DNA from: Pyrinomonadaceae bacterium
GTDB lineage: Bacteria > Acidobacteriota > Blastocatellia > Pyrinomonadales > Pyrinomonadaceae
Direction of reading: 5' to 3'
DNA: 64,000 nucleotides
Assembly (NCBI GenBank): GCA_046313635.1
Contig: JBKBYA010000013.1
Coordinates: 9,795-73,794, forward strand
In this document: positions 11,811 to 64,000 of the stretch, piece by piece
Layout of the letters: every line of letters begins with the position of its first letter
Numbering within the stretch: position 1 is the stretch's first letter
The notes under the pieces: generated by a model
What the model saw: the letters and a program-made list of their open reading frames with translations, nothing else
Told to the model about the DNA's origin: nothing
Database searches by the model: none
Program-made: the position numbers and the translations under genes

Positions 11811-12725
11811 TTACCAGCTTCCGCCCGAGCCGCCGCCGCCGAAATCGCCTCCGCCGCCAAAGCCGCCAAAGCCTCCTCCTCCACCGCCGAAGCCGCCGCC
11901 GAAGCCTCCCCAATCGCTCGACGATCCGCCGCGCGACGAGGCCGCGTTCGCGATCATCGAGCCGATGATCCACGGAAGCACGTCGCCGCCGCCTCCGCCG
12001 CCCCAGCCCCCGCGTCCGCCGCGGCCGCCGCGCGACGACAGCATCACGATCAGGAGCAAGATCCCGATGCCGATGAAGCAGATCAGCCCGGAGCCGCTGC
12101 TGCGGATGCGAGCAGGCGTGCCGCTGCGGGGCGTCGGAGTCGGTGTCGCCGATGCGATGCCGCCGCGGCGCTCGTTGATCGTTCGGATGTAGGCGTCGAC
12201 AGTGTCGGCGATGCCTTTAGCGTAATTGCCTTTGCGGAACTCAGGCACGAGGTACTGCCGCTGAATGCTGCCGGCGAGCGCGTCAGGCAGCTCGTCCTCG
12301 AGATCGCGGCTGATCTGCGTGAAATACTTCCGGTCGTCGATCGCGACCAGAAGCAAAGCACTCGGGTTGTCGTCCTCTTGTGAACCGATCTTCCAGCCCC
12401 GGGCAACGGCAAGCGAATAATCGAAGATGTCGCGTTCGCCGGTCGTTCGAACCACGACGACGGCGATCTCGGTCGAGGGCGAAGAGGTGTCGCGAAAATT
12501 CTTCAGCTTCTCTTCGAGCTGCTGTTTGGTCGCGGCGTCGATCACGCCGGCGAAGTCATTGACGAATCCGGTCGGTGCGGGCAGCGGGGAAGTGTTGATC
12601 GAGAAGTCCTGCGAGCCTGACTGTTCGCCCTGCGCCAAAACGGCGATGCCCGCGGCGATCATCACGATCGACGCGAGCACACAAGCACGCAGCTTCACCG
12701 GGGCAGACATTCTAAACATCGGCAA
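11811..12725 (-). CDS. TPM-domain protein (YgcG-like) with Gly-rich C-terminal tail
   Basis: FVNDFAGVIDAATKQQLEEKL..EIAVVVV..ALLLVAIDDRKYFTQISRDLE is the TPM phosphatase-like domain, followed by a TM helix and GGGFGG low-complexity tail. Same strand as LemA. Confidence 0.85.
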   Translation of the reverse strand: MPMFRMSAPVKLRACVLASIVMIAAGIAVLAQGEQSGSQDFSINTSPLPAPTGFVNDFAGVIDAATKQQLEEKLKNFRDTSSPSTEIAVVVVRTTGERDIFDYSLAVARGWKIGSQEDDNPSALLLVAIDDRKYFTQISRDLEDELPDALAGSIQRQYLVPEFRKGNYAKGIADTVDAYIRTINERRGGIASATPTPTPRSGTPARIRSSGSGLICFIGIGILLLIVMLSSRGGRGGRGGWGGGGGGDVLPWIIGSMIANAASSRGGSSSDWGGFGGGFGGGGGGFGGFGGGGDFGGGGSGGSW

Positions 12726-12785: not shown

Positions 12786-14588
<1,803 letters not shown>

Positions 14589-14594
14589 CGGTAG

Positions 14595-14676
14595 AAAGGA
14601 TAAAGGATGAAGGATGAAGGATAAAGGGAAGAGCGGCGATCGTGCGGCCGCGGTCCCTGATCCTTCATCCTTTAAG
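14595..14676. repeat. Heptamer-array hairpin (unit AAGGATG / CATCCTT) between SRP RNA and dnaX
   Basis: aaggata aaggatg aaggatg aaggata aaggga, then a 24-nt GC loop, then tccctgatccttcatcctttaag. Confidence 0.8.
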
Positions 14677-14682
14677 AAACTG

Positions 14683-14785
14683 GTGGCTTCAGACTTACCC
14701 GCAACACAGGCTGAAATCGCTACCGTTGCTCGATTCCTCGCCTAGCGGATTCACGACTCAAACCTTGTGCGGAGCCTGAAGCCGT
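14683..14785 (-). ncRNA. ffs: Signal recognition particle RNA (small/4.5S type)
   Basis: Minus strand: 5' ggcuucag pairs with 3' cugaagcc. Domain IV motif AGG-CGA-GGAA-UCG-AGCA-ACGGUAG (GGAA tetraloop plus AGCA). ffs immediately upstream of dnaX is a common synteny. Confidence 0.75.
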
Positions 14786-14791
14786 ATGTGA

Positions 14792-14869
14792 ATTTTGGAT
14801 TTTAGATTTTGGATTGTCGAAAAACGGTCGCTTACTTCAATCCGAAATCCGAAATCTAAAATCCAAAAT
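14792..14869. repeat. Heptamer-array hairpin (unit ATTTTGG / CCGAAAT) between tRNA-Ser and SRP RNA
   Basis: attttgg attttag attttgg attg, then loop, then caatccgaaatccgaaatctaaaatccaaaat. Confidence 0.8.
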
Positions 14870-14874
14870 CGATC

Positions 14875-14965
14875 TGGCGGAAAGGGTGGGATTCGAACCC
14901 ACGGTACCCTTTTGAGGTACACAGCATTTCCAGTGCTGCCAGTTCAACCACTCCTGCACCTTTCC
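14875..14965 (-). tRNA. tRNA-Ser (anticodon GGA), CCA encoded
   Basis: Minus strand GGAAAGGTGCAGGAGTGGTTGAACTGGCAGCACTGGAAATGCTG..long variable arm..GGGTTCGAATCCCACCCTTTCCGCCA. Anticodon loop CU-GGA-AA. Confidence 0.9.
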
Positions 14966-14966
14966 G

Positions 14967-15048
14967 GGAATTAAAAATTCCAAATTTCAAATTCCAAATT
15001 TAGGCTTGCCTCGATCAATCTGGAATTTGGAATTTGGAATCCTTAATC
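14967..15048. repeat. Heptamer-array hairpin (unit AAATTCC / GGAATTT) between the two tRNA-Ser genes
   Basis: aaattcc aaatttc aaattcc aaattta, then loop, then tggaatt tggaatt tggaatc. Same unit type as 24592..24636. Confidence 0.8.
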
Positions 15049-15053
15049 GATCG

Positions 15054-15144
<91 letters not shown>

Positions 15145-15200: not shown

Positions 15201-15365
15201 GTCAGAACCGCCCCGCGTAAGCGGGCGGGTCGAACCATCGGCGACTTATTTGTCGGGGAAATACGCGAGAGATCGCGAAAGCAAATTGGGCGAAAGAGCC
15301 CGCCCGCTTGCGCGGGTGGTTCTGACGGGCAAAAGAGCCCGCCCGCTTACGCGGGTGGTTCTGAC
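15201..15365. repeat. REP-like palindromic elements: three ~31-bp copies (one inverted, two tandem)
   Basis: gtcagaaccgccccgcGTAAgcgggcgggtc (15201-15231) is the reverse complement of gagcccgcccgcttgcgcgggtggttctgac (15296-15326) and gagcccgcccgcttacgcgggtggttctgac (15335-15365). Each has a CCCGC/GCGGG stem with a GNRA-type loop. Confidence 0.8.
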
Positions 15366-15826
15366 CGGCGTCTTGCTCTGAAAAACTCCTGCATCAGCGA
15401 GCGGCATTCTTCCTGCAGCACTCCGCCGCGGATCTCAAAGCGGTGATTCAACAGTTCGCTCGTTCCGATGCCGAAATGCGTGACCAGTCCGCCAAAGCGC
15501 TCGTCGGCAGCGCCGTAAACCACGCGTGCGACCCGCGCACCGACGAGAGCACCGGCGCACATTACGCACGGTTCGATGGTCGTGTAGAGCGTTGTGCCGG
15601 TGAGGCGATAGTTGCCGAGCTTGCGCGCGGCCTCGCGCAGGGCGAGGACCTCGGCGTGGGCGGTCGGGTCGCTCTCGGCGATCGTACGATTCGAGGCCGA
15701 TGCGAGCAACTCACCATTCTCGTCGACAACGCACGCTCCGACGGGCACCTCGTCGAGGTCGCGAGCCTCGCGTGCGCGTGCGAGGGCCTCGCGCATCCAG
15801 ATCTCGTCTTCGATCGTCTCGTGCAT
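15347..15826 (-). CDS. tadA: tRNA adenosine(34) deaminase
   Basis: HAEVLALREA and TIEPCVMCAGAL zinc motifs. Start trimmed to MHETIEDEIWM (cat 15824-15826). The last ~7 codons and the stop lie inside REP copy C. Confidence 0.9.
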   Translation of the reverse strand: MHETIEDEIWMREALARAREARDLDEVPVGACVVDENGELLASASNRTIAESDPTAHAEVLALREAARKLGNYRLTGTTLYTTIEPCVMCAGALVGARVARVVYGAADERFGGLVTHFGIGTSELLNHRFEIRGGVLQEECRSLMQEFFRARRRSEPPA

Positions 15827-41485: not shown

Positions 41486-41759
41486 GTCTAACCCCCCAGT
41501 GTTCGATGAATTACCGATGACAGTTTCGGGCCGACCTTCGCGTCTGGATGATTCGCAGCTTCCTGCCCGACCTGACTCGTAGATTCACTATATCATCAAT
41601 AAAATCGACTTCCGAATATTTGGCTGAGTGAGGGTTCTTTGAGACTTTGCACATGAGCGGAAGCGGTACGGTTCCGACGGGGTCAGCATCCCTGACGCCA
41701 ACGGCGTGGGTGGGTACCAATGACAACATAAACGTAAACCTCGCCTAATTGTTACCAGT

Positions 41760-41963
41760 CTAAACGGAAGTTTTCGGGTCGATGAGAACTGGTCTGTGCG
41801 ATTCGCTTGGAGGAGCTCCTCCGAGCGAATAGTGCGGACGGCGATGGTTGTAGAAGTCTATCAATCGCGACGTCAGTCCTCGCACCTGGTCCAAACTGTC
41901 AAAGATGAACATATCGAGAATTTCCTGTCGATGTGAAAAGCCACCACCCCCGATCTGCGCCAA
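41760..41963 (-). pseudogene. Relic of a DDE (rve-type) transposase, C-terminal ~55 aa only
   Basis: ..FDSLDQVRGLTSRLIDFYNHRRPHYSLGGAPP.. matches the conserved end of the integrase-core domain (YN..RPH.sLgg..P). The catalytic region is absent. Confidence 0.6.
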
Positions 41964-41970
41964 AAAACAG

Positions 41971-42002
41971 AAAAAAATGAGGCCGCCTTTTCAGACAGCC
42001 TC
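41971..42002 (-). terminator. Intrinsic terminator after the 42039..43493 gene
   Basis: Minus strand: gaggctg-tctgaaaag-cggcctc followed by attttttt. Confidence 0.6.
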
Positions 42003-42038
42003 TTTCTGATCAAGCAGGATAGCTAGCCTGCGTTACTT

Positions 42039-43493
42039 TTAATTATCCGACTTAGGGATGCTTGAGCGAAAAAGCGGCGTAGCAGCATTTTCACCGTTTG
42101 CTATGAAGTTCACATCCGATACACTCTCGCGAAGTGTAAAAGTCTGAGTCGAGTTGAAGAACGTGTAACCCTTACTTGTGACGCTAAGATTGTATACATC
42201 GTCCGTCATTACATCCTGGAACGTGTACCGACCGAATGTATTCGATCGAGTGTAAAACGTCTCACCGGTCGACAGATTCGTCAGCGTGAGTAACGCACCA
42301 CGGATCGCAACTCCTTCACTCGTCATTACACTACCGGATATCTCCGCCGGAGCGGCCGTCGGAGTAAGGCGAGTGTTCTTGAAGATACACTCGGCTATGT
42401 TGCCCTCGAGCGGGTTGTACGTTACGGTCCGGGTATTAAAGTCCGTTGTAATCGTTCCAACAGCGCCCAAGCCTCCTGGGGAAATCGTACACGAAAGGTC
42501 CAATAGCGAGTAATTGAGCGGCTGGGGATTGTTTTCGGTCACCGTGTAGTTCACGCTAGATCCGAACGTCGTAATGTTATTGAACGTTGCGCTTCCGCCA
42601 GCCAACTCTGCGGGGTCGGTATCCATTAATGAAAACGCGGATGGAGTAAGCCCCGAGGTGGTGAACCCGAAGCTTACAAAATTGTTACTGTACGACAGAG
42701 GGCTAGCGTTGTACACGAGTTTCGTGATTCTAAGAACGGCTGGGTAGATCACCGCCGCGGCTGCCAGCGAACGGTCCTGATTTCCGCCCGAGCCATCCAG
42801 GTCGATCACTCGAGTGTGATAAGGAGAGCCGGAGATAGCGATTGCCGAGTTATTAACGCCCCAGTCAATTCGAGTAGCGATATGGCCACCCCAAGCCAGG
42901 ACAACAGTCGATTGCGTGGCATTGAATGTAATTGTTATGCGCGTCGAGCTGTCGCCGGCGTAGCTGCCTGTCAGCGTATATGCAGAAAGGCTGGTGATCG
43001 AACCGCCCCACATTGAGAAATTTCCTGCAATCGGGGTTACTCCGCCGCCCGTAACATTCGGATCAACTGGAATCGGGAAGTTAGTCGGAGACCCGCCGCA
43101 TGGGGCAACGCCGCTGCAGGGGTCACTGCCAATATTCACTGTCCGATCCCAGCTAGTAAGATAGTCGATCGCGTGTTTTCCGCTTTTGGTGGTATCCCAT
43201 CCGATCGTGAGTGAATGCGAGCCGAGGCTCAGGTTCGTCATCACGACGCGATACGGAATCGAGTCGCCCTCATAATACTTCGCCTGATTCGAATTTACGT
43301 TGCCGTTTTGCCATTGTGCGTTAAGACACGCCAGATCCCCATTAGATCCGTTTGCACATTGGTCAATGTCAGCTGCCGGATTGGGCATCAGCGATTGTGC
43401 AGATACGTCTGTGCCCGCAGCGGCCGCGAGAACCAAAATCGCTGAGGCGATCACCAATTTACTGAACAACATTTTTAACTGGGAAAACTTCAT
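42039..43493 (-). CDS. Secreted protein: unknown N-terminal beta-rich domain, prealbumin-like domain and C-terminal carboxypeptidase-regulatory-like domain
   Basis: AGGAGGGG SD and signal peptide. C-terminal 170 aa colinear with the 40550 protein (FGRYTFQDVMTDDVYNLSVTSKGYTF..FTLRESVSDVNFIA). GC visibly lower than the surroundings. Confidence 0.75.
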   Translation of the reverse strand: MKFSQLKMLFSKLVIASAILVLAAAAGTDVSAQSLMPNPAADIDQCANGSNGDLACLNAQWQNGNVNSNQAKYYEGDSIPYRVVMTNLSLGSHSLTIGWDTTKSGKHAIDYLTSWDRTVNIGSDPCSGVAPCGGSPTNFPIPVDPNVTGGGVTPIAGNFSMWGGSITSLSAYTLTGSYAGDSSTRITITFNATQSTVVLAWGGHIATRIDWGVNNSAIAISGSPYHTRVIDLDGSGGNQDRSLAAAAVIYPAVLRITKLVYNASPLSYSNNFVSFGFTTSGLTPSAFSLMDTDPAELAGGSATFNNITTFGSSVNYTVTENNPQPLNYSLLDLSCTISPGGLGAVGTITTDFNTRTVTYNPLEGNIAECIFKNTRLTPTAAPAEISGSVMTSEGVAIRGALLTLTNLSTGETFYTRSNTFGRYTFQDVMTDDVYNLSVTSKGYTFFNSTQTFTLRESVSDVNFIANGENAATPLFRSSIPKSDN

Positions 43494-44026
43494 TTTTAGC
43501 CCCTCCTAAGGTTGGCCCCGAAGCTACGAACATCTCGAGGGCAGTTTTTACAAAGAATTATCTAGTACGTCTCCACGCAAGCTCCCCCGGGTGCAGCGCT
43601 CGTAGATCGCGACCCGGGTTCGCAAATATGAATTGGAAGTGTGTCGAACTGTTTAACATACCCTTTCGAGTGGCGTCAAGACATTTCCTCGGGGGATTGA
43701 CGGTCCTCGCGAGGATCTCTCGAGCCCTCGGAAGCGGGCCGAATGCCCGAAAAGCTCTAAACGATTCGGAATGCCTATTCGCTGCATAAATCAAACAAAA
43801 GCAAACGTCTTAGCTTATTCGTGCAGCGAGCTGGTTAGTTCGTTTGACACAATATAGCACGAATCGAACGAAATTCCAGAAAAAAGCTCAGACCCCTAAA
43901 ACGGCTAATCCAAACGGCGGCTGCCCCGGCCCCCGACTTCGCGAAGGCGTGTTTTGCAGGGCGTTCACTTTTGATTTGTCACTCGGTAGAAAGAGCCAAT
44001 AGGCCAGGCTTCCAAGATTTGCGCGC

Positions 44027-44054
44027 AAAAAAAGGCAGGGCCGAAACCCTGCCT
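44027..44054 (-). terminator. Intrinsic terminator after the S8 peptidase gene
   Basis: Minus strand: aggcaggg-tttcgg-ccctgcct followed by ttttttt. Confidence 0.7.
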
Positions 44055-44093
44055 ATCACGCGGCATTCACCGCTCGTATTCAAACGACTGGTC

Positions 44094-46025
44094 TCATTCG
44101 CGATGCACGACGAAATCCATATCCGCGAGATCTTGGAGCAGCATGAAGGTCCTCGACTCGGTGATCGGCGTCCCCCGCTTCGACGGTAGAACCGACAGAA
44201 CGTAATATCGCGACACCGGAAGATCCTCGAAGGTGTAAAAGCCGAAGGAGTTTGAGATGCGGGTTACCGTCAGGCCCGTCTCCGTATCGAGAAGATTCAG
44301 GACCATACCCCGAACTCCCCGACCGTTCGCATCGACCACACGCCCGGTCACAAAGGCCGAAGCCGCCGTCGGAGCGAGAGGCTCGCTTGTGTAAGTGCAG
44401 AGAATGTCTGCTCCGGGCTGAGCCACGATCGACGCCGTCTTGTTAGCCAGATCAAGAGACGCGTCGGCCGCCGTCGTGGTGCCGTTCAATGTCTGCGTAC
44501 AGTCGATCGACGTCAGGCGGTAACCGTCAACCGGAGACTCGGTGACAATGATCGGATTCGAGCTGCCGAAGGCCTGCACGTTCGCATCTTGATAGGTCGT
44601 GTTGTCGACCAGTGTAAATGTCGCAGCGGCAAGACGTGTCGCACTAAAAGGGAAAGCCGCTGTCGATGAGGTGCTGGTGCTATTCTGTAGGCGCTTTTTG
44701 ACCGTTACGCGAGCGGAGCTTGGCGTCGGGCTGGGCGTCGGTGTGGCCGTCGGCGTCGGCGTCGGTGTCGCCGTCGGCGTCGGCGTCGGTGTGGCCGTCG
44801 GCGTCGGCGTCGGCGTCGGTGAGGTCGAGCTCAACCATGTATACAAAAGCAGATTGGGCGAGGCCGCATTGTTGGTGGTAAGCACACCGGTTGTCGCGGT
44901 GCTCCGAATGACCTGTGTAACTGTCGCAGCACTGGCAGTCGGATTTGCCGACAAGTAGATCGCCGCGGCACCGGCCACCATCGGAGCCGCCATAGACGAG
45001 CCGCCCAGCGTATTTGTAGCCGTATCGCTCGACGACCATGTGCTGATGATCTGGTGGCCGGGAGCAAAAAGGTCAACGCAGGATCCGTAATTCGAATAGA
45101 GTGCCCTAACGTCGTTGGGGTCGGAAGCTCCGACCGTGATGGCCGCCGGCGTGCGTGCAGGCGTGAAGTTGCACGCATCGTAGTTGCCGTTGCCGGACGC
45201 GACCGAATAGACGATTCCCGAGTTAATGGAGTTTGTAAGAGCGGTCTCGAGCGCCGGCGACGAACCCGCTGCAGCTACGCTGATATTTGCGACCGCAGGC
45301 CTGACGGCATTGGTCGTCACCCAGTTGATACCCGAGATCAAATTGGATATCTGGCCGTTGCCGTCGCACTGCATTACGCGCACGCCGTGAAGGTAGACGT
45401 TTTTTGCCACACCCCACGTAGCCGCGCCGATGGTTCCCGCGACGTGCGTGCCGTGACCGTTGCAGTCAAAACCATTTTGGCCGTCGCCGACAAAGTCGAC
45501 CGAAATGCTCGCGCGGCCACCAAACTCCACGTGCGTCGGCCGGATGCCCGTGTCGATCACGTAGGCGTGCACGCCCGCGCCGGCTGAGCTGTAGCTGTAC
45601 TGCGTATCGATCGGACGGTTGCGCTGGTCAACCCGATCGAGGTTCCATGGAGCTCCGGTTTGGGTGGCGGTGATCGAAATATAACCGTCCTCCTCGATCG
45701 ATCGGATGCTCGGATCGGCGGCCATTGCCTTGGCCTCCTCCGCTGACATCTCAGCGACAAATCCCTTGACGGCAGACGAAAAAACGGTCTTTACCGATCC
45801 GCCGTACAGCGAAACAAGGTAGAGACCTTGCGCCTCGACCTCCGGCTCGAGGGCCGCCGCTCCCGTTGTCTCCTCATCGAGAAGGATAATGTATCTATTT
45901 GGAACCGGTGATGCGGCGCGAACGACGTCGCTCTCTTTCTTTTGGGCTGAAGTCCCCGATGGGCCGATGGTCGCAATTCCGAGGACTGTGATGATAAATA
46001 CCGACAGGATCCAAAACTTTGTCAT
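44094..46025 (-). CDS. Secreted S8 (proteinase K/subtilisin-like) serine peptidase with I9 propeptide, Thr-Pro linker and the shared C-terminal tail
   Basis: Triad contexts YVIDTGI, NGHGTHVAGT, GGSSMAAPMVAG. TPTPTPTA linker, then prealbumin-like plus CarboxypepD_reg-like domains. Confidence 0.93.
   Translation of the reverse strand: MTKFWILSVFIITVLGIATIGPSGTSAQKKESDVVRAASPVPNRYIILLDEETTGAAALEPEVEAQGLYLVSLYGGSVKTVFSSAVKGFVAEMSAEEAKAMAADPSIRSIEEDGYISITATQTGAPWNLDRVDQRNRPIDTQYSYSSAGAGVHAYVIDTGIRPTHVEFGGRASISVDFVGDGQNGFDCNGHGTHVAGTIGAATWGVAKNVYLHGVRVMQCDGNGQISNLISGINWVTTNAVRPAVANISVAAAGSSPALETALTNSINSGIVYSVASGNGNYDACNFTPARTPAAITVGASDPNDVRALYSNYGSCVDLFAPGHQIISTWSSSDTATNTLGGSSMAAPMVAGAAAIYLSANPTASAATVTQVIRSTATTGVLTTNNAASPNLLLYTWLSSTSPTPTPTPTATPTPTPTATPTPTPTATPTPSPTPSSARVTVKKRLQNSTSTSSTAAFPFSATRLAAATFTLVDNTTYQDANVQAFGSSNPIIVTESPVDGYRLTSIDCTQTLNGTTTAADASLDLANKTASIVAQPGADILCTYTSEPLAPTAASAFVTGRVVDANGRGVRGMVLNLLDTETGLTVTRISNSFGFYTFEDLPVSRYYVLSVLPSKRGTPITESRTFMLLQDLADMDFVVHRE
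44727..44822. repeat. In-frame tandem repeat encoding the (TPTPTPTA)n linker of the S8 peptidase
   Basis: Iterated ggcgtcggcgtcggtgtggccgtc (24-bp period). Confidence 0.8.
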
Positions 46026-57713: not shown

Positions 57714-58397
57714 TCAGGCGACAAACTTATAGCCAAAACCGTGCACCGTCTGAATGTACCGCGGGCGTCGCGGATTGACCTCCAGCTTTTGCCTGAGCCA
57801 TGCGATGTGGACGTCGACGGTGCGCGTCGTAGGCGTCGCGTCGTATCCCCAGACGGCGTCGAGCAGCTGGTCGCGCGAGTGGACGACGTTTGGATTTTCG
57901 ACGAGGTACTGCAGGAGCTTGAATTCGAGCGCCGACATCTCGACCGCTGAGCCGTTTCGCACGACCTCGGCCCTTCGAAGGTCGATCGCGACGTCGCCAA
58001 ATCTAAAGACATTGGTCGAGCGGCCTTTCCCCGCAGAAGGAGCGCGCCGCAGCAGCGCCTCGACGCGGGCCAGCAGCTCCATCACTTCGAAAGGCTTCGT
58101 AAGATAATCGTCCGCGCCGAGCTTTAGGCCTAAGACCTTATCGATGGTCTCGCCCTTTGCCGTGAGCATCAGGATCGGCGTCGCGACGCCCGCCGCGCGC
58201 AGATCGCGGCAGACGTCGTACCCGTTCTTTTTCGGCAGCATCACGTCGAGGATGATCAGGTCGTGCCCGCCGCCGAGCGCGAGCTCGTAACCCGTCAGCC
58301 CGTCCTCGGCGCTCAAAACCTCAAACCCCTCACTCCGCAGCCGATCGGTCAGCGTCAGTATCAGGCCCTGTTCATCTTCGACGAGAAGGATCTTCAT
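57714..58397 (-). CDS. OmpR/PhoB-family response regulator
   Basis: MKILLVEDE..DLIILDVMLP..LTAK.. receiver domain plus winged-helix output (..VHIAWLRQKLE..IQTVHGFGYKF). Confidence 0.93.
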   Translation of the reverse strand: MKILLVEDEQGLILTLTDRLRSEGFEVLSAEDGLTGYELALGGGHDLIILDVMLPKKNGYDVCRDLRAAGVATPILMLTAKGETIDKVLGLKLGADDYLTKPFEVMELLARVEALLRRAPSAGKGRSTNVFRFGDVAIDLRRAEVVRNGSAVEMSALEFKLLQYLVENPNVVHSRDQLLDAVWGYDATPTTRTVDVHIAWLRQKLEVNPRRPRYIQTVHGFGYKFVA

Positions 58398-58875
58398 TCG
58401 TTAGTGGTGAAGCGTGAAGCGTGAAGTGTGAACGGTGAATGGTGAGTGGTGAACGGTGAACGGTAAACGGTAAATGGTGAACGGTGAACGGTAAACGGTA
58501 AACGGTAAACGGTAAACGGTAAGCGGTAAACGGTAAATGGTGAACGGTGAACGGTAAATGGTGAACGGTGAACGGTAAACGGTAAGTGGTAAATGAAGGA
58601 TGCCATTCACAATTCACGATTTACGAGTCACGATTCACTATCCGCTCAAGTCTGTCCATTCACCATTTACCATTTACCGCTTACCGTTTATGAACGGTGA
58701 ACGGTGAACGGTAAACGGTAAGTGGTAAATGAAGGATGCCATTCACAATTCACGATTTACGATTTACGAGTCACGATCCGCTCAAAGCTGTCCATTTACC
58801 ATTTACCATTTACCACTTACCGTTTACCACTCACCACTTACCGTTTACCACTCACCACTCACCCTTCACCGTTAA
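58398..58875. repeat. Duplicated composite heptamer-array element (arms GGTGAAC/GGTAAAC, conserved ~65-nt core) between the kinase and regulator genes
   Basis: Unit 1: ~190-nt GGT[A/G]AAC array, core aaggatgccattcacaattcacgatttacgagtcacgat..ccgctcaa..ctgtcc, then a 33-nt GTTTACC-type array. Unit 2 (58690-58875): 40-nt array, the same core, then an 80-nt complementary array. 58470-58530 holds six near-perfect cggtaaa heptamers. Confidence 0.9.
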
Positions 58876-60700
58876 CCACGGGTAGCTCTATCGTAAACCT
58901 GCTTCCGCGCCCCGATCCGCTTTCGGCGGTGACGCGGCCGCCGTGGGCTTCGGCGATCTGTTTTACGAGCGAGAGGCCGAGGCCGCTGCCGTGGATCTGC
59001 GCGTCGACGACCGTTCTTGACCTGTAAAAAGGCTCGAATACATGTTTCAGATCAGCGCTCGATATGCCGATCCCGCGGTCTTCGACGACGATCTTCACCG
59101 TGCCGCCGCCGTTCGCCGCCGAGACCCTGATCCATCTTTGCCCGTTGGCGTACTTGACCGAGTTCGCGATGAGGTTTTGGATCGCCCTATTCAATGCCGC
59201 CTCGTCGGCCGAGACCGACGGCAGCGCCGGCGGGATGTCGGTCTCGACCGCAAAGCCCTCAGACTCGAGCAGCGGACGGCTGTCGTCGACGGCCCGTGCG
59301 ACAAGCGACGCGATGTCGACCGGGCGAAAGTTGTACTTCTGCCGGCCCGAATTTGCCCCGGCAAATTCGAGTATCTGCTCGACCATCGCCGAAAGTTTTT
59401 TACCCTCGCCCTTGATCAGCCGGCCGTAACGCGCGACCTGTGATCCGTCTTTTGCGACGCCGTCGGCGAGATTTTCGCCGGCGGAGTAGATCACCGCGAG
59501 CGGCGTGCGGAACTCGTGCGAGACGCTCGAGACAAAATCGACCTGCCGCTGGGCGAAAAGCCTCGCCCGCGCAGACGAGACGATGATCCCCGCGACCGCC
59601 GCGCCGAGCAGAGCGAGAATGCCAAATCCGACACCAAGATTTCGCCATTCGGTCTTCGCCACCGACGCGGCGACCGAACCGTCGCGGTGCCGCGCAGTGA
59701 GCGTCCACGGCGGCGGCTCGCCCGTTCTCGTTCGGGTCGCGATCATCGACGCTCTCGCCGGACCGTTCTGCTTCATCTCGACGGTCACCTGGCCGGTCTT
59801 TGCAACGCGCTTTTCGATCTGGCTGAACGAGTGCGTTTCGAGCCGCGAATCAAAAACTACGGTGCCCGGCCTTTTATCGCCGCCGCCGATCGACGAGAGC
59901 ACGTCGCGATTAGAAAAGAGAATGAAGTTCTCCGCCGACAGATCGAAGAGCCTCGCCCGCGCATCGCCGTCGCCGGCTGCTGCGTCGACCGGCACAGATC
60001 GATATTCGCTGCGGCCCGCGCCGTCGTCGACCGATATCGCAAACTCGCCGTCGCCAAAATGCCGGTCGGTGAGATCCGGCAGCAGGCGTCCGGTGATGGT
60101 CGACTTGTCGAGGCGGATCGCGAGATAGCCGACGGTCTTTGGTCTGGGGAGGGGCGGCGACGCTTCGTCGCCGCGCGTGCGGCGGATAAAGATGCGCTCG
60201 ATCTTTGGCGGAGCCTCGCTGATCGGCAGCACGAGCGTCGAGATGTCGGCGAGGACCGGCGTGAACGTATCGCCCGCGCCGATGCGCGAGCGCAGCGTGC
60301 GAAGCTCGTCGTTCCACGCTGCCTGCTCAAACCGGGCGCCGTCGGCGCCGCTGTGAACGAGAGGTTCGGCATCTTCGCTTTCGGCGTCGAAATATACAAA
60401 GCCCGCGACGAGCGTCGGGTACTGCGTCTTCGACCGCCAGTAGGCCAGTCGCTCGTTGAACTCGCTCCAGTCGCGGTCTCGCCACGACAGCGCGTCGGTC
60501 TGAAAGTTGAAATACGCGCCCTGCATCTCGCGATTGAAATCGCTCGCAAATCGCGTCGTCGCTTCGTGCACGCGCCGCTGCATCTTTTCGGCCTCGCTCG
60601 CGCTGATCTGCCGCTGCCAGCGGAACTGCAGCGCGCCGAGCAGCAACAGCAGTCCGACGAGCGCGGCAAAGAGCAGGATTGTCGAGAGCGATCGCTTCAT
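58859..60700 (-). CDS. Sensor histidine kinase (HisKA + HATPase_c)
   Basis: H-box FVSSVSHEFRTPL, N-box NLIANSVKY, G-boxes DRGIGI and GSGLGLS. Start trimmed to MKRSLSTILL. The last 6 codons (VVNGEG) and the stop derive from the repeat. Confidence 0.9.
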   Translation of the reverse strand: MKRSLSTILLFAALVGLLLLLGALQFRWQRQISASEAEKMQRRVHEATTRFASDFNREMQGAYFNFQTDALSWRDRDWSEFNERLAYWRSKTQYPTLVAGFVYFDAESEDAEPLVHSGADGARFEQAAWNDELRTLRSRIGAGDTFTPVLADISTLVLPISEAPPKIERIFIRRTRGDEASPPLPRPKTVGYLAIRLDKSTITGRLLPDLTDRHFGDGEFAISVDDGAGRSEYRSVPVDAAAGDGDARARLFDLSAENFILFSNRDVLSSIGGGDKRPGTVVFDSRLETHSFSQIEKRVAKTGQVTVEMKQNGPARASMIATRTRTGEPPPWTLTARHRDGSVAASVAKTEWRNLGVGFGILALLGAAVAGIIVSSARARLFAQRQVDFVSSVSHEFRTPLAVIYSAGENLADGVAKDGSQVARYGRLIKGEGKKLSAMVEQILEFAGANSGRQKYNFRPVDIASLVARAVDDSRPLLESEGFAVETDIPPALPSVSADEAALNRAIQNLIANSVKYANGQRWIRVSAANGGGTVKIVVEDRGIGISSADLKHVFEPFYRSRTVVDAQIHGSGLGLSLVKQIAEAHGGRVTAESGSGRGSRFTIELPVVNGEG

Positions 60701-60887
60701 TTCAAAAGCGCGAAGCACGCGCGGCCTCTCGTGGCCCATTGTCCACTCTGCACTTTTCGGTGTCCACTGCTTTTCGGCACTTTTTACATCCTTAACAATT
60801 TCTTTGCCTGGTCTTAACCACACGTTGGTCAGGCGGTGAAATAATCGGTACCGTCAGAAAACCATTCGACGGCTTGGGAGGCAATTT

Positions 60888-61982
60888 ATGAGACGATTCA
60901 TCACTTCAGTTTTATGCGTATCGGTCTTCTTCATCGGGCTCGGCGCCCTGGTAGAGAAGGCAGGGGCCGCGTTTCGCTCGGACGAGAAGGCGCTCGCCAT
61001 TATCGCCGCGGCACGCAAGGCGATCGGCGGCGACGCGGCGATCAACAACATTCGCAGCCTGCGCGTCAGAGGCAGCACGGTCAAGATCCTGAAGATCGGC
61101 GGCGAAGAAAAAAGCATTGCCGGCGAGACCGAGATCGCGATGCAGCTGCCCGACAAATTTTCCAAGATCGTTAAGCTCGGCAGCGGCGGAGAAGATCGGC
61201 CCGGCGACGCGAGCATCGACGTGCTGGTCACCAGCGACCGGCCGAGCGGCGTCGGACCGCATAAGGTAACGATCAAAAAAGGCGAAGGCGGCCAGGAGAT
61301 CGCGGTCAAAAGGTCGGATGCCGACGTAAAGGAGATCGAGACCGCCGACGGCGGGCGAGTCATCGTTCGCAGTATCTCGAAGGACGGCGAGCCGGCAAGA
61401 TCACGATCCGGTGATGGAGCCAAGGTGTTTGTCGACAAGCGTGTCGGTGACGCCGGCCGCCCGGGGCCGCGGCAAGACGAGTTTGCCCGGACGCTGCTCG
61501 CACTGCTGCTCTCGACGCCGGGCGACGCCGCGGCGAATTTCACGTTTGGCGGTGAACATCAGATCGACGGCCGACAATGTAATATGATCGTTGCCGACCT
61601 CGGCTCGTCGAGCGTGCGGCTGTACCTCGATCGCGACTCAAACCTCCCGGTGATGGTCGCTTACACGGCGGTCGAGCCGCAGGTCGTCTTTTTCCGAAAG
61701 GAGGCCCCGGCCGGCCGGGCGTTGGGCGAAAAGAAGGACGTCGTGACCTTTGACCGCAAGGCCGACGCGAGCACTACGGCGGTCGAATACCAGGTCCGCT
61801 TCTCAGACTACCGTTCGGTCGACGGCGTGCAGCTCCCGTACAAGTGGGTGACGACCGTCAACGGTGCGGCAGGTGAGACATTTGACGTCGCGTCGTACGA
61901 GGTCAATCCCGCGAATATCGCCGACGCGTTCGGCAAGCAGCGGATATTTGTTCGCGAGGCCAAGCCGGACCAGAACAAGTGA
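60888..61982 (+). CDS. Hypothetical secreted protein
   Basis: Signal peptide, 364 aa, divergent from the kinase operon. No family recognised. Confidence 0.5.
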   Translation: MRRFITSVLCVSVFFIGLGALVEKAGAAFRSDEKALAIIAAARKAIGGDAAINNIRSLRVRGSTVKILKIGGEEKSIAGETEIAMQLPDKFSKIVKLGSGGEDRPGDASIDVLVTSDRPSGVGPHKVTIKKGEGGQEIAVKRSDADVKEIETADGGRVIVRSISKDGEPARSRSGDGAKVFVDKRVGDAGRPGPRQDEFARTLLALLLSTPGDAAANFTFGGEHQIDGRQCNMIVADLGSSSVRLYLDRDSNLPVMVAYTAVEPQVVFFRKEAPAGRALGEKKDVVTFDRKADASTTAVEYQVRFSDYRSVDGVQLPYKWVTTVNGAAGETFDVASYEVNPANIADAFGKQRIFVREAKPDQNK

Positions 61983-61994
61983 TCCCCGTTCGAA

Positions 61995-62027
61995 GGGCGG
62001 GCGAGGCGGGGCGACCCGCCTTTTTTT
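61995..62027 (+). terminator. Intrinsic terminator
   Basis: gggcggg-cgaggcggggcga-cccgcc followed by T7. Confidence 0.75.
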
Positions 62028-62167
62028 CGTTTACGCGACGGCCTTGCCGGCCCGCACCTTCGCGGCACACGCATCCCGCCCGCAGACCATCAAAACCGGC
62101 GAATTTGTTATAATTTACGCTCCGGAGGAAGGTCAGTATCAGCAATATCCACGGCTTCACAAAAGGG

Positions 62168-63910
62168 TTGAAGCAAAACCAGCTCAAGCGCATCGAACGC
62201 CTCGCCACGCGGCGCGTCGCTCCCGATCAGATCATTTCACCCGAGCTTGCACGGCAGATGACCGAGATCTCGCACGAGACCAATCGGCAGGTCGGCGTAC
62301 TGCTCAATCGCAAGGGCCAGGTCGAGTACGTTATGGTCGGCACAGCGAAGCAGATCGAGATGCCCGACTTTGGCCGCGCCCGCGTGTCGGCCGACCGCTT
62401 CCGCGGACTCCGATGCGTTCACACGCACCTGCTCGGCGAAAAGCTCACGCAGGACGACCTCACCGACCTCGCCCTGCTGCGCCTCGACCTGATGTCGATC
62501 ATCCAGGTCGATAGATCAAACGGCCTGCCCGGTCTCGTCCACTCGGCGCACCTCGTACCGGCCCAGCCGGGTTCCGAGTTCGGGGTTCAGCGTTCCGGGG
62601 CGAACGGGCACTCTGAACTCGAAACCCCGAACTCTGAACTGCGAGGCTCTGACTCGCTCCCGTACGAATTCCTCGAGCCCGCGATCCCGGCCCATCTCGA
62701 GACCGACTTTCTCTCGCTGATCAACTCGCTCGAGGACGAGATGGCACGCGTCCGCCAAACGGCGCGCAGCCGGCAGGCAAACCGCGACCGGGCGATCCTG
62801 ATCAGCGTCACGACCGGCAGCACGGACGATGCCGCGGAGTCGCTCGCGGAGCTCGAGGAGCTCGCCGCGTCGGCGGGCGTCTTTGTCCTCGACAAGATCA
62901 TCCAGCGCCGCCCGCAGATCGATCCGCGAACCGTGCTCGGCCGCGGCAAGCTCGACGAGCTGCTCATCCGCTCGATGCGGCTCGGCGCGGATATGATCAT
63001 CTTTGACGCCGAGCTCGGCCCGGCGCAGGTGCGTTCGCTCTCGGAGGCGACCGAGCTCAAGGTCATCGACCGTCCGCAGCTCATCCTCGACATCTTTGCG
63101 CAGCGCGCGCAGAGCCGCGAGGGCAAGCTGCAGGTCGAGCTGGCGCAGCTCAAGTATCTTTTGCCCCGGCTGGTCGTCGGACAAAACTCCGCATTCTCGC
63201 GGCTTGCCGGCGGCATCGGCGGACGCGGGCCCGGCGAGACCAAGCTCGAGACAGACCGGCGCCGAGTGCGCGACCGCATCTCGCAATTGGAACGCGCCGT
63301 CGACGACCTCGGCCGCCAGCGGCAGGAGCGCCGCAAGAACCGCGTTCAAAAGCACCTGCCGATCATCTCGCTCGTCGGCTACACCAACGCCGGAAAATCG
63401 ACCCTGCTCAACGCGCTCACGCAATCGGACGTTTACGCCGAGCAGAAGATGTTCGCGACGCTCGACCCGACGTCGCGCCGACTGCGTCTGCCGTACGAGC
63501 AGGAGGTCATCATCAACGACACGGTCGGCTTCATTCGCGATCTGCCCGCAGCACTCGTCTCGGCGTTTCGCGCGACGCTCGAGGAGATCGCCGACAGCGA
63601 CCTGCTGGTTCACGTCGTCGACGCGTCAAATCCGCGCGTCGAGCAGCAGATCGGATCGGTCGAGGGCATTCTCAAGGAACTCTCTCTCGACCGCATTCCG
63701 CAGGTGCTCGTGCTGAACAAGTCAGACCTCATCGCGGCCGACGATCTCGACGCGCTGCGGCGCAGGGTGATGCTTGACAGGAGTGCGGAATGCGTGGCAA
63801 TTTCAGCTATCCGCCGGGATACCCTCCGTCCGCTGGTGGAAGCGATGGCAGTCAGGATAGGCATGTTCTCGGTACCGAGCGACGAGGTCGCGGCGGCCGG
63901 CAATCTTTAG
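62168..63910 (+). CDS. hflX: GTPase HflX (long form with ~190-aa N-terminal extension)
   Basis: HflX N-domain (..LILDIFAQRAQSREGKLQVELAQLKYLLPRL) and G-domain (GYTNAGKST, DTVGF, NKSD). TTG start assumed. Confidence 0.92.
   Translation: MKQNQLKRIERLATRRVAPDQIISPELARQMTEISHETNRQVGVLLNRKGQVEYVMVGTAKQIEMPDFGRARVSADRFRGLRCVHTHLLGEKLTQDDLTDLALLRLDLMSIIQVDRSNGLPGLVHSAHLVPAQPGSEFGVQRSGANGHSELETPNSELRGSDSLPYEFLEPAIPAHLETDFLSLINSLEDEMARVRQTARSRQANRDRAILISVTTGSTDDAAESLAELEELAASAGVFVLDKIIQRRPQIDPRTVLGRGKLDELLIRSMRLGADMIIFDAELGPAQVRSLSEATELKVIDRPQLILDIFAQRAQSREGKLQVELAQLKYLLPRLVVGQNSAFSRLAGGIGGRGPGETKLETDRRRVRDRISQLERAVDDLGRQRQERRKNRVQKHLPIISLVGYTNAGKSTLLNALTQSDVYAEQKMFATLDPTSRRLRLPYEQEVIINDTVGFIRDLPAALVSAFRATLEEIADSDLLVHVVDASNPRVEQQIGSVEGILKELSLDRIPQVLVLNKSDLIAADDLDALRRRVMLDRSAECVAISAIRRDTLRPLVEAMAVRIGMFSVPSDEVAAAGNL
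62568..62646. repeat. Heptamer-array hairpin embedded IN FRAME in hflX
   Basis: gggttcc gagttcg gggttca gcgttcc, then loop ggggcgaacgggcac, then tctgaac tcgaaac cccgaac tctgaac. gagttcggggtt pairs with aaccccgaactc. Encodes PGSEFGVQRSGANGHSELETPNSELRGS. Confidence 0.8.
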
Positions 63911-64000
63911 ACTTCGCTGCCGGCACGCGGATTCCATCAGATGGCAAAGCGAATCAGAGAGCTGAGATCTCCCGCCGCAAGATGGCGGCAGCAGTTGACG

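Follow-up and report, generated by a model that had tools for sequence, protein, structure and literature searches.

The hflX locus and its palindrome

We analyzed a stretch of 64,000 nucleotides from a soil Pyrinomonadaceae bacterium (contig JBKBYA010000013.1, positions 9,795 to 73,794 of the forward strand), referred to here as the window, in which a long-form hflX gene contains a palindrome built from tandem heptamers. Four heptamers, a loop and four complementary heptamers lie in frame within a linker of the encoded GTPase. The features of the locus are as follows.

62104..62114, + strand: extended -10-like promoter motif TTTGTTATAAT upstream of hflX (TTTGnTATAAT conserved in relatives)
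62138..63910, + strand: host gene, long-form hflX, from its probable start (open reading frame, Pfam, conserved ATY start context in 44 loci)
62558..62570, + strand: small hairpin CCGGCCCAGCCGG directly 5' of the palindrome (minimum-free-energy structure)
62568..62651, + strand: encoded product of the element, PGSEFGVQRSGANGHSELETPNSELRGS, residues 134-161 of the 580-aa reading frame; low complexity, predicted unstructured
62570..62597, + strand: left arm, four tandem heptamers GGTTCCG AGTTCGG GGTTCAG CGTTCCG (sequence, tandem repeat search, inverted repeat)
62598..62610, + strand: loop GGGCGAACGGGCA, 13 nt (sequence, RNA fold)
62611..62639, + strand: right arm, four complementary heptamers CTCTGAA CTCGAAA CCCCGAA CTCTGAA, then C (sequence, tandem repeat search, inverted repeat)
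62641..62657, + strand: small hairpin CGAGG...CTCG directly 3' of the palindrome, before the conserved SLPYEFLEP codons (minimum-free-energy structure)

The open reading frame (ORF) called mechanically at 62168-63910 (+) starts with TTG at 62168, encodes 580 aa and is uninterrupted through the element. Its product matched Pfam GTP-bdg_N (residues 224-311; 100.6 bits, cut-off 25.4), GTP-bdg_M (residues 313-392; 103.3 bits, cut-off 29.5) and MMR_HSR1 (residues 400-518; 74.9 bits, cut-off 21.9). N-terminal and middle domains are thus followed by the MMR_HSR1 G domain, as in HflX, and the source records of the homologs name a GTPase HflX. An earlier annotation made from the letters alone, the original prediction, had placed the palindrome in frame inside hflX, and this single 580-aa ORF with three HflX domains bore it out. 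A split of hflX into two genes was rejected, given the unbroken ORF and the fused, single-gene state of the orthologs. The same annotation spoke of an essential-type GTPase; in model bacteria, HflX is not known to be essential.

The mechanical start is probably ten codons too short, and the probable true start is the ATC at 62138, 9 nt past a GGAGG (62124-62128). Across 44 related loci, TTTGnTATAAT and GGAGG are followed after 8-10 nt by ATY and then by the in-frame conserved ..GFT.GLK, and in most of these loci ATG, GTG and TTG are absent from the open upstream stretch. Comparison of the window (62104-62140) with these loci indicates that a non-canonical ATC/ATT start codon seems to be used for hflX in this clade. 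The two-hexamer promoter scan did not pick up the motif at 62104..62114, and the terminator scan placed a terminator of the gene upstream of hflX at 62003-62022. Residues 1-131 (62168-62560) form a conserved N-terminal domain of long-form HflX, ~130 aa in length and without a Pfam match, which also occurs in homologs from Myxococcota and Desulfobacterota and was modelled at low confidence.

The left-arm unit of the palindrome is NGTTCNG, a GTTC core with three variable bases. Tandem Repeats Finder (TRF) reported period-7 arrays at 62567-62599 (4.7 copies, 73% matches) and 62610-62640 (70% matches), and the repeat search gave 25-nt inverted-repeat arms at 62571-62595 and 62615-62639 with 84% complementarity. 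The RNA fold of 62555-62660 reached -55.9 kcal/mol compared to -39.2 +/- 3.7 kcal/mol in 200 dinucleotide shuffles (z = -4.45), and none of the 200 shuffles matched this energy. The loop codes for part of Gly-Ala-Asn-Gly-His, and its AACGG is also found in the loops of three independent linker hairpins of relatives (L164, L167 and L082). The element is a true heptamer-array palindrome, with the architecture of the original prediction. Chance or an assembly artefact was rejected on the basis of the fold z-score, the enrichment of period-7 arrays over shuffles and the presence of homologous elements in independent assemblies, both described below. An intrinsic terminator was rejected because the hairpin has no downstream T-run, and the terminator scan of 61900-64000 gave nothing at 62570-62650. 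Rfam at the gathering threshold returned no known RNA family at the element, and only the signal recognition particle (SRP) RNA and two tRNAs in the window.

The element occupies residues ~132-165, inside the N-terminal extension, between the conserved ~130-aa N-terminal block and a conserved segment of ~55 aa that precedes GTP-bdg_N (from residue 224). Its placement in a linker was correctly predicted, but not the placement of that linker at the junction with the canonical N-domain. Linker length was measured between the anchors AHLxP and [YF]E[FY]L in 116 loci. The length ranged from 6 to 78 aa, with 14 aa (typically TTAESLEAEAQSLP) in 65 of the loci. The 34 aa of the window exceed the modal ortholog by a net 20 aa and the close relative L083 by 13 aa. 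The extra residues are an insertion relative to most orthologs, as had been proposed, but fewer than the ~26 originally counted. The linker is a hypervariable, permissive interdomain site.

The GC content at third codon positions (GC3) is 0.64 in the element and 0.84 across the remainder of hflX, where fewer than 5% of 28-codon windows have so low a value, and the composition of the element is non-coding-like and atypical for hflX coding sequence. One of the other two forward frames over the element contains stops. The tryptic peptide that would mark its translation is SGANGHSELETPNSELR. In an AlphaFold2 model of HflX built from 55 homologs, residues 134-164 had a predicted local distance difference test score (pLDDT) of <50 and no secondary structure; judging by this model, the linker with its element is probably disordered.

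Linker inserts in related hflX genes

The best genomic matches to the window HflX were metagenome-assembled genomes of Pyrinomonadaceae/Blastocatellia (Acidobacteriota) with 75-79% identity, and the best proteins in a collection of 5.8 billion were 85-87% identical. No HflX protein above 87% overall identity was found in that collection, and the metagenome scan reached at most 78%. The orthologs are all single fused genes, in which the ~130-aa N-terminal block is followed by the linker, a segment starting (S)LPYEFLEP and the HflX domains. The sisters of the window protein, P0002-P0005, are 91-92% identical to it outside the linker and bear other inserts. The following linker inserts were found, among them a long hairpin that resembled repetitive extragenic palindromes (REPs).

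L164 (=P0033): 5 x AGTCGRG, loop, 4-5 x TCNCGAC; -46.6 kcal/mol
L167 (=P0023): 4 x NNAGACA, loop, 4 x GTCTNNN
L081 (=P0002), among the closest relatives of the window: 4 x NNAAGTC, right arm mostly decayed
L011 and L165 (=P0047): 3 x 9-mer, loop, 3 x complementary 9-mer
L082 (=P0005): long REP-like hairpin, z = -4.3
L088/L089 and L090: shorter hairpins

Besides the REP-like hairpins, the array palindromes of relatives in this linker include the 7-mers AGTCGRG and AGACANN and two 9-mer types. Several other long linkers in relatives showed no folding beyond shuffles. On the sequences compared, hairpin repeats of several kinds have repeatedly landed or grown in the HflX linker of Pyrinomonadaceae.

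The linker elements of L166 (=P0100) and L164 align with that of the window in register and in the same frame, with a mean column identity of 69% and with corresponding peptides (GSEFGV..GANGHSELETPNSEL versus GSESGV..GADGASSELKTHDSRL). Orthologs with a homologous peptide but no palindromic nucleotide structure would have spoken against the original prediction; L164 and L166 have the peptide and the palindrome together. It had also envisaged an indel confined to one lineage, which did not hold. The two HflX lineages with in-register homologues have backbones 81-83% identical to that of the window and nearest neighbours with the short canonical linker, and it is the closest relatives (91-92%) that have different inserts.

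Covariation was assessed across these three homologous copies (window, L164 and L166), on which the test rests. The RNAalifold consensus hairpin had 29 pairs, 8 of which keep pairing through changes on both sides, and 88.5% of cells were paired. The observed values were reached by 4 of 500 shuffles, and slid controls gave 17-52%. Within an element, the arms form Watson-Crick pairs at 22/27 positions in the window and 24/27 in L164, whereas the same arm is identical between lineages at 15-20/27 positions. As arms are more complementary within an element than orthologous arms are identical, these results indicated that the arms evolve in concert.

Insert type did not follow the HflX backbone. 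The backbone of P0033, linker excluded, shares 95% identity with P0078, a protein with the canonical 14-aa linker, but only 81% with the window protein, and incongruence was also observed for the AGACA-type, 9-mer type and REP-like inserts. To explain it, linker alleles must have recombined across the highly conserved flanks, or inserts must have been acquired at this position more than once. The allele of the window is old and shared among lineages, and was probably spread or lost by homologous recombination across these flanks.

Arrays at the same site can differ sharply between close relatives. In L001 (262-414) and L002 (2687-2922), the flanks upstream of hflX are near-identical, yet the palindromes have different units (TTGTCAT versus GTTGATC/GTTGTTC) and also differ in length and arm symmetry, the arms of L002 being unequal (9.6 versus 19.6 units). 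Arrays that differ at a fixed site between near-identical flanks point to rapid change in place. In the insert-less L168, 95% identical to L164, the native codons GAG AGT C(TC GAG), Glu-Ser-Leu-Glu, contain the GAGAGTC that is the left-arm unit of L164, and in L167 the last right-arm unit AGTCTTG matches the native CAGTCTTTG of the insert-less relative L169. These matches suggest that arrays can grow in place from native codon seeds.

TRF returned 28 period-7 rows in the window versus 0-7 in 20 shuffles; apart from period 14, no other period had more than 8 rows. The hflX element is one of ~12 period-7 arrays in the window and the only one within a gene; a crude ORF map based on GC3 puts all the rest between genes, in agreement with the earlier claim that the same architecture occurs there. 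At least six other window loci are complementary array pairs with a loop, each with a different unit. A second copy of the hflX element was not found in the 64-kb window at <=3 mismatches in 20 nt, its own opposite arm aside, and the element shares with two other window arrays only the 4-nt GTTC core. In ~1 Mb of related DNA, 150 period-7 arrays had 107 distinct canonical units, and no single heptamer unit was dominant across these loci. This diversity of units, together with the lack of a second copy in the window, argues against a sequence-defined mobile family.

Heptamer palindromes of the GTTC family were also observed near hflX in relatives, either just upstream of the gene or straddling its stop codon. 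Where they straddle the stop codon, the array supplies the codons of the HflX C-terminal tail, which in L086 reads ..VPGSEFEV.., similar to the linker peptide of the window. The arrays around hflX lie at these positions.

L086: 2640-2756
L165: 2728-2801
L100: 1768-1821
L166: 1935-1960
L164: 844-950 and 2705-2724

Origin of the element

We favour, with moderate confidence, the explanation that the element is a palindromic heptamer minisatellite that was made by slippage, has its arms kept complementary by template switching, and persists because it sits in a tolerant linker and leaves the frame unbroken. The 7-nt units would multiply through replication slippage, and an inverted arm would arise, and stay complementary, via intramolecular template switching between arms (quasi-palindrome homogenisation). 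Selection would act only against variants with a broken frame, new stops or impaired flanking domains, and the element would be read through in frame as ~23-28 low-complexity residues. The mRNA hairpin would be a by-product, to which no dedicated role in HflX function or regulation is assigned. Slippage with a heptanucleotide preference is reported for bacterial long simple repeats (PMC4679880), and the homogenisation of inverted-repeat arms by template switching, within genes too, is an established mutational mechanism (PMC7202029, PMC8604942). For the window element itself, we infer the slippage and template-switch mechanism, its neutrality and its recombinational spread.

Several observations weigh against this explanation. 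With the best proteins at 87% identity, the relatives provide no clean empty site for the window's own lineage. The search for a second copy covers 64 kb of the genome, and others may lie outside it. The scattered distribution of insert types needs recombination or repeated targeted insertion, and selection on the hairpin would explain equally well the compensatory changes found in the three diverged lineages. An identical stretch of 16 nt, CCGGGTTCCGAGTTCG, is common to the window element and the array at the hflX 3' end in L086, as is the peptide PGSEF; this match, together with the recurrence of GTTC-core arrays around hflX, hints at copying between sites. Finally, residues 64-129 also had a pLDDT of <50 in the AlphaFold2 model, and because model confidence is low across much of the N-terminal region, the disorder of the linker is weakly supported.

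The element was compared with known repeat systems. Rickettsia palindromic elements (RPEs) are hairpin-forming palindromic repeats in the reading frames of housekeeping genes, translated as a short extra peptide at a position that the protein fold can accommodate (PMC10969869). The window element is likewise palindromic, in frame in an ORF and at a structurally permissive site. However, RPEs are ~100-150 bp long and form ten sequence families in Rickettsia, whose copies are numerous and alike within a genome and encode a conserved peptide, whereas the window element is built from tandem 7-nt units over ~70 nt, had no further copy in the 64 kb searched, belongs to a class with near-locus-specific units, has no Rfam match and comes from Acidobacteriota (Pyrinomonadaceae/Blastocatellia by HflX similarity). 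The parallel with RPEs drawn in the original prediction holds for the outcome, an in-frame palindrome, but not for family copies, size or lineage. Short tandemly repeated repetitive (STRR) sequences of cyanobacteria are tandem 7-bp repeats of unknown function that form hairpins in spacers inside operons, as in hupS-hupL and nif intergenic regions, and vary between close relatives (PMC2670836). Tandem 7-nt units and complementary arrays that fold into a hairpin are shared with the window element, and the intergenic copies of the window match the spacer setting of STRR sequences. In contrast, STRR sequences are intergenic, belong to filamentous cyanobacteria and have a few named consensus units, while the window element is acidobacterial, has the unit NGTTCNG and lies in frame within a gene.

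REPs are described as sequence families of 20-40 bp with a conserved GTAG or CGTC tag that are mobilised by RAYT transposases (PMC3733652). Like REPs, bacterial interspersed mosaic elements (BIMEs) and REPINs, the heptamer arrays are short, imperfect, hairpin-forming palindromes abundant in spacers, and REP-like hairpins occur in the same HflX linker of relatives. Unlike REPs, the window element starts with GGTTCC and ends with TGAAC, has no GTAG or CGTC tag, is composed of tandem units and lacks internal similarity to a dispersed family. Long simple sequence repeats offer another comparison, the 7-nt unit being reported as their most abundant class in many bacteria and attributed to polymerase slippage (PMC4679880, PMC4692102). 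Those are direct repeats, whereas the window arrays are complementary pairs with imperfect units that form long hairpins. Quasi-palindrome template-switch mutagenesis makes arms more complementary, also in coding sequence, which fits the closer match of arms within an element than between orthologs. It is a mutational process, not a class of element, and we infer its action on the window element.

Transposition of a non-autonomous mobile palindromic element (MITE-, REP- or RPE-like) into hflX, with survival because it was in frame in a permissive loop, would produce the same outcome as the RPEs of Rickettsia (PMC10969869), but we consider it unlikely. The same insert types do occur in dispersed HflX backbones whose nearest neighbours have a canonical linker, GTTC-core arrays lie upstream of hflX or across its stop codon in L086, L164, L165, L166, L099 and L100, the window element has the 16 nt and the PGSEF peptide in common with L086, and REP-like hairpins of evidently dispersed families are present in the linker of relatives (L082). 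Yet the units are nearly locus-specific, as the ratio of canonical units to arrays shows, and no further copy was found in the window at the mismatch limit given above. The flanks CCGG and TGCG show no direct duplication that would mark a target site, and the arms are tandem arrays, not the unique terminal inverted repeats of a miniature inverted-repeat transposable element (MITE). No transposase was linked to the element, though a RAYT-type gene was not searched for. The native codons of insert-less relatives that recur as array units in L164 and L167 also speak against transposition, as does the contrast between the L001 and L002 arrays, which occupy one fixed position with conserved sequence on either side. 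The mobile insertion implied by the original prediction was not upheld, as there is no second copy in the window and the relatives with and without arrays point to growth in place.

It is improbable that the hairpin is a selected cis-acting structure, in hflX mRNA or single-stranded DNA, placed between the segments for the N-terminal domain and the GTPase to cause ribosome pausing, tune expression or provide an RNase III/E site. The original prediction had likewise suggested that it could bring about a translational pause, attenuation or RNase cleavage. At least six different hairpin-forming insert types recur at exactly the HflX linker, pairing was kept by compensatory changes in the three homologous copies, and analogous cyanobacterial 7-bp-repeat hairpins have been suggested to stabilise transcripts or couple translation (PMC2670836). 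However, more than half of the orthologs (65/116) have a short linker and no hairpin, several long linkers fold no better than shuffles, the right arm has decayed in the close relative L081, template switching alone is able to keep arms complementary, and the covariation was drawn from three sequences only. That hflX is a phase-variable contingency gene, in which gain or loss of one 7-nt unit shifts the frame and turns the GTPase off or on, is very unlikely indeed. The unit length is not a multiple of three, and copy number of such arrays changes over evolutionary time, as in L001 and L002. On the other hand, there are four imperfect units per arm (73% and 70% matches), which strongly lowers the slippage rate, every sampled array-bearing ortholog is in frame, and period-9 arrays at the same site (L011 and L165) are what a frame filter, rather than switching, predicts. 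A broader proposal, which we regard as doubtful, is that heptamer- and nonamer-array palindromes are an undescribed acidobacterial class, nucleated on native sequence including codons and grown symmetrically outward by slippage and template switching. Their hairpins would be selected, and at the HflX linker the process would recurrently add stretches of protein and, with them, an mRNA structure that influences HflX synthesis. A literature search on heptamer or palindromic repeats in Acidobacteria, Blastocatellia or Chloracidobacterium found nothing specific. The element is most likely a tolerated passenger and not a new system.

Other repeats of the window and implications

The complementary array loci elsewhere in the window are listed below.

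8456/8497: complementary pair, unit AGTGGTC
9132/9199: complementary pair, unit CGTAAAT
14792/14839: complementary pair, unit ATTTTGG
14975/15017: complementary pair, unit AAATTCC
38754/38846: complementary pair, unit GTTCGTG
58406-58879: array field of 470 nt, units GGTGAAC/GGTAAAC

Three RNA genes are located on the minus strand, tRNA-Ser(CGA) at 15055-15144, tRNA-Ser(GGA) at 14875-14965 and SRP RNA at 14684-14781. The heptamer palindromes at 14975-15040 and 14792-14870 exactly occupy the spacers between them and could be processing hairpins of a multi-RNA precursor. A single array of AAAGGAT x 4.7 (14595-14627) lies between the SRP RNA and the start of a 600-aa ORF (12786-14588). The field at 58406-58879 comprises ~60 heptamers (GGTGAAC/GGTAAAC and their complements), with nested sub-palindromes and an internal duplication of 136 nt. 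It is situated between a response-regulator ORF (57714-58397, -) and a histidine-kinase ORF (58859-60823, -); the equivalent spacer in L082 is 58 nt long.

Repeats of other classes were also observed. A REP-like, GC-rich hairpin, GGGCAAAAGAGCCCGCCCGCTTACGCGGGTGGTTCTGAC, is duplicated in tandem (39 nt) at 15288-15369; it is distinct from the heptamer arrays and resembles the REP-like inserts in the HflX linker of relatives. Within coding regions, GGCGTC hexamer and 24-mer arrays (44722-44819) lie inside the ORF at 44094-46025 (-), and GCC/CGC-rich 18-30-mer and triplet arrays (11829-12031) lie inside the ORF at 11811-12725 (-). The region 41500-44100 has the lowest GC content of the window (0.517 over 42001-44000 versus ~0.60) and no ORF that passes the GC3 filter of the crude map, and may be foreign or non-coding DNA.

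The analysis adds three points: the recurrence of several kinds of hairpin repeat at the HflX linker, the co-evolution of the arms and the apparent growth of arrays from native codons. Pyrinomonadaceae genomes are rich in STRR-like heptamer hairpins, which occupy the gaps within operons and those separating tRNA and SRP RNA genes. For the biology of HflX itself the practical consequence is small: the insert is probably a tolerated disordered segment, to be taken neither as a domain nor as a sign of a split gene. If growth in place is true, slippage and template switching would write new peptide into a conserved ribosome-associated GTPase, and would do so repeatedly and in multiple forms at one permissive linker, widening the picture of selfish DNA in coding genes beyond Rickettsia.

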